Shown here one piece after another: positions 39,001 through 42,000 of a stretch of 64,000 nt of DNA. Numbering within the stretch: the stretch's first letter is position 1; each line of letters begins with the position of its first letter. This stretch comes from Escherichia coli. Its GTDB lineage: Bacteria; Pseudomonadota; Gammaproteobacteria; Enterobacterales; Enterobacteriaceae. A program made the position numbers. The stretch lies in assembly GCF_045037415.1 (NCBI RefSeq), contig NZ_CP173438.1; one strand, 5' to 3'.

Positions 39001-42000
39001 CTGGCGACAGCAAAGGTGCTGAAATTCCCGGAAGTGCAGATGCATGAAATCCTGAGTGACTTTGCCAGAATGATTCCGGCAGCACTGGATAACGTGAAGA
39101 CTTCATTACCGACAGATTTTCCGGAGAACGTGGTGACGGCAGTTGAAACCAATGTGTTGAGGTTGCACGATCGGTTAAGCCGAGAATACGGTATTAAGTA
39201 AGATATGGGGTTTTGGTCGTTGTTAATGAGCAGAAATCATGAACCGCCAACGACTGGATTCGCCCTTGGTTTATATTGGTGCGCATAATGTATATTATGT
39301 TAAATTGATTATGAAGGTCCTTTACTTCACCATTCACATCCACACACAGATAAATCAATACGTTGTGATTTCTGACTTCCCTCCCGTTTCGGTAGAAAAA
39401 TCAACCTCTGTTCAGTGATGGCACACCATAGACCATGAGCTGGATAATTGCGTTGTTTACAGCAGCCAGCGCTTTGATGGCACTATATCCCTCACGCTTC
39501 TGAATATAATTCATAGCGCCGTGTAATTATCTTTAATCTCAAGTTAGCTAATCTCAGCATATCGTGTTGATATGCAATGTGAAATACAGAGAACAGTGAC
39601 TACAGCTGATGGAGGAAGCTATTTCCGATATTCGTCAACTTCCAAATATATCGTTTAAAACAGGTATCAGATATGAAAGCACTACTAATTACTGCATTAT
39701 TCATGGGATTCAGTTAGTTTCACCAGGCAAACATTAACCATAGCTAATGTTTATAGCCATATAAACTATTAGTACCTCTTGACCTTTCCTGACACTTCCC
39801 TTGTTCGCAATAATATTCTGTTTAGTCGCTGTTTATAAATAACATGCATAATGAAATCGTCATGTTATTTAGCGACATAAAATGTTTTTACAAATACTCT
39901 CTACAACAAGTGCAGCAATAAAATTGTTGTGAATAGGTGTCCTTGTAATTTAAAGATATTATCATTCTTCGTGAAATGTAATAACCATGGAAACTATATT
40001 CTCAGGGCAACATCCAATCAAGAATGATTCTTGTTTTATAAGCAATAACAGAATAACTTAATTGTTAACTCTCTTTATTCAGCTACTTAAATATAAATTT
40101 TGGAGAATTATGAAACTCAAACATGTCGGTATTATTGTCGTTTCTGTGTTGGCGATGTCGTCTGCTGCGGTAAGCGCAGCCGAGGGTGATGAATCAGTAA
40201 CGACCACTGTTAATGGCGGTGTAATTCATTTTAAAGGTGAAGTGGTAAATGCCGCTTGTGCGATTGATTCAGAATCAATGAACCAAACGGTTGAGCTGGG
40301 TCAGGTTCGTTCTTCTCGCCTGGCTAAAGCGGGTGACCTCAGCTCCGCCGTTGGCTTCAATATCAAGCTGAATGATTGTGATACCAATGTTTCCAGTAAT
40401 GCAGCTGTTGCATTCCTGGGTACTACTGTCACCAGTAATGACGATACATTAGCGCTGCAGAGTTCAGCGGCAGGCTCTGCCCAAAATGTCGGTATCCAAA
40501 TTTTGGACCGTACAGGGGAGGTATTAGTACTTGATGGTGCTACTTTTAGCGCTAAAACTGACTTGATTGATGGCACGAATATACTGCCGTTCCAGGCTCG
40601 TTATATTGCTCTCGGGCAGTCAGTAGCTGGTACTGCAAATGCTGATGCGACCTTCAAAGTTCAATATCTATAATTCACTCTTAAGGTGACTATGCGTCAT
40701 CTGAAATTGAAACAGGGTGTGTGTGGCATGGCTACGCACACCCGAGAAATTCACCAATGTTCATCTCATTATTAATGAAAAATGGTTTGTATTTTGGAGC
40801 GGTATGAAAAATCACATAATATCTAAACGATCAATAAACAACAGTAGTTAAACTTGCTGTTATTTAAAATATTTACTTGGTAGCAAGGTTTTCCTATCAA
40901 AAGAGAACCAACATTTATTACAAACGCATTAAGTCTGGAAACCCGGCGACTCGCCAATGTATTAGCAATATTTACCGATTGTCTGATGTAACGGTTTCCC
41001 CGCTTATCCTCTTAACACATGGAGAATGCATCAGATGCAAACTACGCGTACCCCCTACTCTGTTTCCTTTATGGCGACAGTGTTACTTTTATTTCTCTTT
41101 GCTTGCCATAGCACCATTGCCAACGCAGCTGTCGCACTTGGTGCGACGCGGGTAATTTATCCGGCAAACCAGAAACAGGTTTTATTGCCTGTCACGAATA
41201 ATGATCCTGCCAGTGTCTATCTCATTCAGTCATGGATAGAAAATGCGGGTGACCAGAAAGATACCCAGTTTGTCATTACCCCACCGCTTTTTTCCATGCA
41301 AGGTAAAAAAGAGAATACGCTTCGGATAATCAACGCCACTAATCATCAGTTACCAGGCGACCGTGAAAGCCTGTTCTGGGTTAATGTTAAAGCTATCCCT
41401 GCTATGGAAAAAGACCAGAAGAATGAGAATACATTACAGCTGGCAATTATTAGCCGCATAAAAATGTTTTATCGCCCCACGCATCTGGCAATGGCACCTG
41501 AAGAAGCGCCTGCAATGCTTCGGTTTCGTCGCAGCGGTAGCATACTCACTCTTATTAATCCAACGCCCTACTTCATTACCGTAACAAATATGAAAGCAGG
41601 AAATAGCAATCTCCCAAACACCATGGTGCCGCCAAAAGGTGAAGTATCGGTGGATATCCCGCATGCTGTAACCGGGGATATCAGTTTTCAGACAATCAAT
41701 GATTACGGTGCATTAACTCCGCTTATTAAGGCAACCATGCAGTAAGCCAGTGACCTAATTAATAATAAACTCAATCGGGATTAAAAATGACAGCCTTTCG
41801 TGCCGCATTTAAGGCATATCGTATGCATCAGGTGTTAATACTGCCTCGCTTTGCACGGCTTACCTTTGCCCTTGGCTTAGCAACTGCGGTTTTTCCCGTT
41901 GACGCAGAGTATTATTTTAATCCACGGTTTTTAAGCAATGACCTTGCTGAATCTGTCGATTTATCTGCCTTTACTAAGGGACGCGAGGCCCCACCTGGTA

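Follow-up and report, generated by a model that had tools for sequence, protein, structure and literature searches.

A canonical, unoccupied dif site beside hipBA in an Escherichia coli lineage with tam next to hipB

Escherichia coli encodes XerC, XerD and FtsK with a gamma domain. The dif site of E. coli K-12 is said to have been described by Kuempel et al. in 1991, at ~1.59 Mb and next to hipA. Its sequence has been used in comparative work; the 28-mer GGTGCGCATAATGTATATTATGTTAAAT is the experimentally confirmed dif of E. coli and served Kono et al. in 2011 as a seed (PMC3025954), and the identical 28-mer is given for E. coli K12 in the table of Carnoy and Roten from 2009 (PMC2731167). The adjacency of hipA and dif and the dif-TerC region have been described for K-12 (PMC5638614). 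XerC and XerD also act on plasmid sites (PMC5357621). According to the literature, recombination at those sites does not depend on FtsK but requires accessory proteins and ~200 bp of accessory DNA.

We found the same 28-mer on the + strand at positions 39278-39305 of the window, which is the whole 64-kb stretch of DNA analysed here. The site consists of a XerC arm (GGTGCGCATAA, 39278-39288), a 6-bp central region (TGTATA, 39289-39294) and a XerD arm (TTATGTTAAAT, 39295-39305). Alignment with the published E. coli dif gave identity at 28/28 positions, which bears out the first-pass annotation, where an exact 28-bp XerCD core had been reported at 39278-39305. This 28-mer is the sole match in the 64 kb on both strands when up to 3 mismatches are allowed, and shuffled sequences gave an expectation of 0. 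A 101-bp query, dif and its flanks, matched 4632 of the 5426 E. coli genomes searched (megablast threshold), at a median of 1 place per genome. The exact 28-mer also occurs in at least 120 species-representative Enterobacterales genomes, and with a 4.5-kb query around dif, identities to E. coli chromosomes reached 100%.

Over its full 64 kb, the window is collinear with the chromosome of strain SK1144 (NZ_AP018784.2, 2430318-2494317), from which it differs by 7 substitutions and one 2-nt indel at ~39235, in the spacer between hipA and dif. The evidence for a single copy thus covers the 64-kb window and the near-identical complete genome of SK1144. In that genome the 101-bp dif region has a single place, and it lies at the convergence of KOPS described below; in its record, which begins with dnaA, dif occupies position 2,469,597 of 5,029,297 bp, 49% of the way round. 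These observations bear on the idea that the 28-mer is a non-functional or secondary copy, either a plasmid-type Xer site or a chance match, with the real site elsewhere on the chromosome. We found no support for this idea; formally, 64 kb of the genome was seen. The zero expectation for a chance 28-mer and the single, well-placed copy in SK1144 speak against it, and plasmid sites such as cer and psi have another sequence and depend on accessory DNA (PMC5357621). We therefore consider a secondary copy vanishingly unlikely.

Genes in the window were placed by the RefSeq annotation of SK1144, corrected for the 2-nt indel, with a list of open reading frames as a second basis. On the left of dif, tam (36547-37305, - strand) is followed by the type II toxin-antitoxin pair of hipB (37613-37879, +) and hipA (37879-39201, +), all three from the annotation, and for hipA an open reading frame also ends at 39201. 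The spacer between the hipA stop and dif (39202-39277) measures 76 nt, where ~77 bp had been estimated. On the right of dif, the first gene of the F9 fimbrial operon, which is fimA-like, begins at 40110, 804 nt after dif. Thus, the earlier statement that the toxin-antitoxin pair and the F9 operon flank dif within ~1 kb holds. According to both the annotation and the list of open reading frames, this F9 (yde) chaperone-usher operon is complete (40110-46472, +); it comprises the fimA-like gene (40110-40673), the chaperone gene (41035-41745), the usher gene (41787-44438), ydeS (44452-44982), ydeR (44995-45498) and ydeQ (45558-46472), all on the + strand, and has a G+C content of 41-46%. In SK1144, ydeP is annotated after the operon. 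We detected no intrinsic terminator between hipA and dif, and a tRNA search found none. An Rfam scan of the whole window gave nothing near dif; its sole match was STnc560 at 22218-22431.

The orientation of KOPS was compared on the two sides of dif. KOPS were defined as GGGNAGGG, and the window was extended by 50 kb of SK1144 sequence on each side to 164 kb. Within the window, the sole KOPS in the 39 kb left of dif is GGGAAGGG at 38553-38560 (+), which points right to dif. Five KOPS lie on the right, at 45873, 50432, 57877, 62397 and 63018 (span 45873-63025); all of them are on the - strand and point left to dif. Over the 164 kb, both sites on the left are on the + strand (2/2) and all those on the right are on the - strand (8/8), with 0 misoriented (Fisher p = 0.022); the counts are small, the 89 kb on the left having only 2 sites. 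All ten point to the interval 38553-45873, which includes dif and is the only split of the KOPS in the 164 kb that leaves zero misoriented sites. The polarity of KOPS, which had been proposed as a check, inverts across dif. Together with the match to the reference sequence, this inversion supports the earlier claim that the window contains the point at which chromosome dimers would be resolved.

GC skew, calculated as (G-C)/(G+C), changed from +0.033 in the 89 kb on the left of dif to -0.012 in the 75 kb on its right. Cumulative G-C reached its maximum at 48884, 9.6 kb right of dif, and was followed by a plateau to ~62 kb. An inversion of GC skew near 39.3 kb had been suggested as a second check; the change of sign across dif was found, but the maximum lies 9.6 kb further right, and the switch is not sharp at dif. 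Kono et al. argued that the skew shift and dif are correlated, not coincident (PMC3025954), and Carnoy and Roten gave an offset of 39.1 kb between the two in K-12 (PMC2731167); because of this larger offset in K-12, the 9.6 kb can be regarded as normal scatter. The SK1144 annotation puts every gene from the F9 operon through dosP on the + strand, and we infer that they are head-on to the fork coming from the right. This run of + strand genes right of dif is a plausible reason for the position of the skew maximum.

Other signals of the terminus are also present. The Ter core GNRNGTTGTAAYKA, with G at position 6, has an exact match at 35476-35489 (-), inside the 23-mer ATATAGAATGTTGTAACTAATAT at 35472-35494 (-). 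This TerC-like, predicted Tus-binding terminator lies 3.8 kb to the left of dif, in the gap between uxaB and yneE. In the left flank of SK1144, another Ter site with the same strand orientation was found just upstream of tus. Judging from their positions and the K-12 sequences, the site in the window is probably TerC and the one beside tus TerB; the window 23-mer presumably differs from K-12 TerC by one base. A string search of the literature for the K-12 TerC 23-mer gave no match. Under the orientation convention of the Tus-Ter lock, the TerC-like site would block forks coming from dif. Its orientation should thus fit forks that pass dif from the right and halt at TerC. In addition, the consensus of matS, the site bound by MatP, GTGACRNYGTCAC, has exact matches at 15807-15819, 25188-25200 and 62495-62507, that is, 3 in the window where 0.01 are expected, and 7 in 164 kb. 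The Ter core match, the matS sites and, in the SK1144 flank, tus and the Ter site beside it place the window in the terminus.

The way in which this site would work is taken from established studies of E. coli. XerC would bind the left arm of dif and XerD the right arm. After homologous recombination has linked the sister chromosomes as a dimer, FtsK, the translocase at the septum, would read the KOPS that converge on dif from both replichores, pump DNA to the XerCD-dif complex and activate XerD for the first strand exchange; XerC would then carry out the second exchange across the 6-bp central region, which would yield two monomers. In the lineage studied here, these events would take place at an unoccupied dif, 3.8 kb from a TerC-like terminator and inside the MatP/matS terminus domain. 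The genes xerC, xerD and ftsK are located outside the window. The mechanism with FtsK, KOPS and XerD acting first has been reviewed (PMC5357621), and FtsK-dependent XerCD recombination and the Dif deletion phenotype have been shown for the identical K-12 sequence (work cited in PMC5357621, PMC2731167 and PMC5638614).

Taken together, 39278-39305 is the standard dif of E. coli, free of integrated elements and in its familiar place beside hipBA, and as such it is already known. We found no evidence that contradicts this assignment. Judging from its sequence and surroundings, it very probably acts as the single functional dif of the chromosome (probability about 0.97), in a lineage that has tam beside hipB and is near-identical to SK1144. 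Nothing is added here to the knowledge of dimer resolution itself. Locating dif fixes the terminus of this chromosome, namely the replichore boundary, the polarity of FtsK, the dif-TerC zone and the MatP domain. It is also of use for annotation, since the RefSeq pipeline leaves the site unmarked; no RefSeq feature is annotated at dif itself. Furthermore, dif of this strain is free of filamentous prophages, which is not so in some other E. coli strains.

Such occupied sites have to be considered here. E. coli JA0072 has two 9.27-kb filamentous prophages of the CUS-1/Ypf-phi type in tandem between hipA and dif. Their genes include those for Zot, a secretin and a replication protein. At the prophage right end dif is restored, and the left junctions are the hybrid GGTGCGCATAA-TGTCAACGCG-TTATGTTGAAA, followed by an inverted dif-like pair. 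Strain 82.0312 has one such prophage at dif, and CUS-1 at dif has been documented (PMC2731167). By analogy, dif in the window could be one end of an integrated Xer-exploiting element (IMEX), a CUS-1/Ypf-like prophage or an island, with a hybrid site at its other end; the DNA next to dif would then be foreign. A direct partial repeat of dif does occur in the ydeQ-ydeP gap, at the end of the low-G+C F9 operon that is distal to dif. We searched the window for a second dif. With the full 28-mer and up to 10 mismatches, only two other places were found, each with 10/28 mismatches; a single-arm scan with up to 2 mismatches returned only chance-level matches in the window; a scan for pairs of arms with spacers of 4-14 nt gave 2 five-mismatch matches (8663 and 46074), where 0.8 are expected from block shuffles. 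As a positive control, the arm scan recovered all prophage junction sites of JA0072, with a perfect XerC arm at each. Because the scan was validated in this way and its matches in the window are at chance level, we conclude that the window contains no integrated Xer-exploiting element; the first-pass annotation had said as much from the absence of a second dif-like copy. No phage gene, for a replication protein, Zot, secretin or the like, is annotated beside dif in the window, so that neither a second dif-like boundary nor phage genes between two such sites were found there. The spacer between hipA and dif, too, is homologous to that of K-12, has the same length of 76 nt and is free of phage genes. 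As an explanation by a current element, an IMEX at this dif is largely refuted, and we regard it as highly improbable.

The partial repeat deserves a separate description. It was placed at 46599-46620 by the repeat finder, which corresponds to 46592-46619 in the register of the 28-mer, and lies in A+T-rich DNA between ydeQ and ydeP. It matches the XerD arm at 10/11 positions and dif overall at 17/28, and essentially lacks a XerC arm; in 128 kb of strand, chance alone should give about one XerD-arm match of this quality. We asked whether the F9 operon could be an old island that integrated at dif and is bounded by this repeat. A chimeric query that joins the two outer halves and represents the empty site was searched in E. 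coli genomes, and 3 genomes had one place at 80% coverage or more; NCTC9113 reached 76%. Inspection of NCTC9113 and of SC477, one of the 3, revealed remnants of F9 or yneL and deletions with right ends at 46379 and 46697. Thus, the inspected E. coli genomes that lack F9 have undergone secondary deletions that do not end at 46592-46619, and the island idea received no support. The partial repeat is best regarded as a product of chance.

The right flank of dif, on the XerD side, is peculiar to the lineage. Homology to K-12 is 96% up to 39305, the last base of dif, zero beyond it, and returns at 39713. The 407 nt in between (39306-39712) are lineage-specific non-coding debris, in which we found no open frame. 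This stretch is a mosaic of pieces that in JA0072 flank a ~6.9-kb gene island: segment 39306-39379 matches the right flank of JA0072, for segment 39380-39607 neither JA0072 nor K-12 gave a match, and segment 39608-39715 matches a JA0072 stretch with which an annotated fragment of bhsA overlaps. Strain 82.0312 shares positions 39275-39507 of the window. The first bases of the right flank are common to ~830 of 5426 complete E. coli genomes, and the whole interval from dif to fimA (806 nt) is shared by 498 of them. The alternative right flank of K-12 is absent from the 164 kb examined. Two blocks of the right flank, GGTCyTTTACTTCA and AAATCArYAyGTTG, also recur, with constant spacing from dif, at loci of Rouxiella, Erwinia, Lelliottia and E. 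whittamii.

On the left of dif, the last 50 nt of the K-12 spacer show 62-72% identity, ungapped, to the 3' end of a 64-aa hypothetical open reading frame that lies beside the XerC arm in Serratia, Citrobacter, Rouxiella, Pluralibacter, Kluyvera and others. This gene is on the + strand and ends with ...SALEKELSEAISNQANDAHKTPDSV, its stop 12 nt before dif. The copy of the spacer in the window is 80% identical to K-12 over those 50 columns. This similarity suggests that the part of the hipA-dif spacer nearest to dif, its last 50 nt, is a fossil remnant of the 64-aa gene's 3' end. The family of this gene comprises 52 database clusters; all of those named by their source are called 'hypothetical protein', and the 52 clusters have no Pfam, NCBIfam or PHROGs assignment.

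Two open reading frames run across dif itself, one of 59 aa at 39239-39418 (+) and one at 39194-39358 (-). The latter has an internal ATG that corresponds to CAT, read on the opposite strand, in the XerC arm. The conservation of dif might therefore be partly coding, if a gene for a small protein or RNA overlapped it. At 8 loci of other genera, the - strand frame that starts from the XerC arm is exactly 24 codons long and encodes a MRTNIESGRIRRFVGIVGLVADGL-like peptide, but this frame is the antisense of the better-supported + strand 64-aa gene. Among 122 loci, frames extend for 3-141 codons downstream of the ATG and for 6-123 upstream. Within E. coli, K-12 and the window lineage differ by 1 nt, SK1144 and the window by 2 nt, and each of these differences breaks the frame; RefSeq annotates nothing at dif. 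An overlapping gene thus seems very hard to credit, and both open reading frames were rejected as genes because frame and length are not conserved across the 122 loci.

We also examined positions outside the 28-bp core, using 113 species-level Enterobacterales loci with the identical 28-mer and enough flank among the matches listed. Most flanking positions carry no information in these 113 loci. On the left, however, T at -1 (0.95 bits), T at -2 (0.85 bits), C at -4 (0.89 bits), A at -5 (1.01 bits) and T at -18, within a cAGATT block (1.16 bits), stand out, as does T at +5 (1.35 bits) on the right. These outer positions are conserved whatever the flank family; the flank families are few and are shared between genera. 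The end of the CUS-like phage has the same cCAGATTCTGCC...TT. Two explanations come to mind. Either the functional dif of Enterobacterales would be longer than 28 bp, with extra contacts to XerC, XerD or an FtsK stop, or traffic of Xer-exploiting elements would have rewritten and homogenised the flanks again and again; under either, the DNA that adjoins dif on its two sides would not be arbitrary. We offer this pair of explanations as a speculation that is rather unlikely to be right. If the flanks were indeed rewritten, the 'empty' site of E. coli would carry old scars.

The closest known system is dif of K-12. The two sites share the 28 bp, the side and distance relative to the hipA stop and a homologous 76-nt spacer; in both, KOPS converge on dif, ydeQRS and ydeP lie on one side, and TerC lies on the side of hipBA. 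They differ in that tam is directly beside hipB in the window, which lacks the autotransporter gene and lsrK found upstream of hipB in K-12, as well as whatever parts lsrK from tam. Since these K-12 genes are missing between hipB and tam, TerC is 3.8 kb from dif in the window; in K-12 the distance is presumably ~18 kb. Furthermore, the 407 nt right of the XerD arm are unrelated, and the F9 operon is complete in the window, whereas K-12 has a 3.3-kb deletion and lacks window positions 39932-43211.

In E. coli O18:K1:H7 and Yersinia pestis, CUS-1 and Ypf-phi type prophages occupy this same chromosomal dif, and an intact copy of the 28-mer is restored at the prophage right end. Unlike these occupied sites, the window has no prophage, no hybrid attL and no inverted attP-like pair of the kind seen in JA0072. 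dif1 of Vibrio cholerae, the paradigm of IMEX with CTX-phi, VGJ-phi and TLC-phi, follows the same logic of XerCD, FtsK and KOPS, and its XerD arm and central region are closely related to those of the window dif (PMC5357621). It belongs to another species, however, differs in sequence and is usually occupied, whereas the site in the window is empty. Finally, the plasmid sites cer and psi have the same layout of XerC arm, spacer and XerD arm and use the same recombinases (PMC5357621); unlike them, the site in the window is chromosomal, lies at the convergence of KOPS and matches dif.

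Sequence conservation around dif (window 39278-39305, + strand) was examined outside the 28-mer, at positions -23 to +5 (minus and plus denote bases to its left and right) of dif loci L012-L131 from other genomes. Among the matches listed, 113 species-level loci share an identical 28-mer, and these carry 0.85-1.35 bits at -1, -2, -4, -5, -18, and +5. Apart from those positions, the dif flanks of the 113 listed loci fall into unrelated families. In several other Enterobacterales genera (L044, L051, L081, L123, L131, and others), an unnamed 64-aa gene stops 12 nt short of dif, and the K-12 copy of the hipA-dif spacer has 62-72% identity to the 3' end of this gene over 50 nt of ungapped alignment. 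Judged by sequence, the spacer in the window (39202-39277) looks like a fossil 3' end of the 64-aa gene. On the right, homology to K-12 stops precisely at the final base of dif and picks up again 407 nt on; the intervening stretch (window 39306-39712) is non-coding debris, and of 5426 E. coli genomes only some 500 share it in its entirety.

Other genomes have further genes and elements at dif. CUS-1/Ypf-like filamentous prophages occupy the same dif in E. coli JA0072 (L004 and L007) and 82.0312 (L008); those of JA0072 are two tandem copies of 9.27 kb each, and the spacer in their hybrid dif sites is 10 nt long. At locus L058, on a contig labelled as a Candidatus Nanosynbacter metagenome-assembled genome, the E. 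coli dif lies between a CUS-like phage flank and a K-12-type flank. This contig is probably E. coli contamination of the metagenome bin. In two other genera (L131 and L093), a 434-aa ORF to the right of dif converges on its XerD arm, and our guess from the N-terminal sequence is that it might encode an HTH-containing HipA-like kinase. If this is true, more than one genus has HipA-family genes beside dif, with the side differing between them.

The F9 fimbrial operon is complete in the window, with a fimA-like gene, a chaperone gene and a gene for an 883-aa usher. From this operon through dosP (window 40110-62457), every annotated gene is on the + strand, and KOPS mark the - strand as the leading strand over the same interval. 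Therefore, about 22 kb of genes are head-on to the incoming fork, and this may be the reason that the cumulative GC skew has its maximum at 48884 and not at dif. Exact matS consensus sites, which are bound by MatP, occur three times in the window (15807, 25188, and 62495) versus 0.01 expected, and seven times in the 164-kb region that adds 50 kb of near-identical SK1144 sequence on each side. A TerC-like predicted Tus-binding site (ATATAGAATGTTGTAACTAATAT; window 35472-35494, - strand) lies between uxaB and yneE, just 3.8 kb from dif.

Two features lie elsewhere in the window. The Hfq-binding sRNA STnc560 (22218-22431, + strand; Rfam match, 282 bits) is directly past dgcZ and adjoins mgtS, and mgtT is overlapped on the opposite strand. 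The marR-marC intergenic region, which is the mar operator region, contains a 21-nt imperfect tandem repeat of 2.9 copies (26125-26185).

The window differs from K-12 on both sides of dif. Its lineage has tam directly beside hipB and therefore lacks the autotransporter gene and lsrK, which are upstream of hipB in K-12, where the distance from dif to TerC is about 18 kb. The window also retains the 3.3-kb stretch (39932-43211) that is deleted from the F9 operon of K-12. In JA0072, a gene island of about 6.9 kb replaces the debris of window 39306-39712, and the end of the CUS-like phage reads cCAGATTCTGCC...TT, as at the conserved flank positions.
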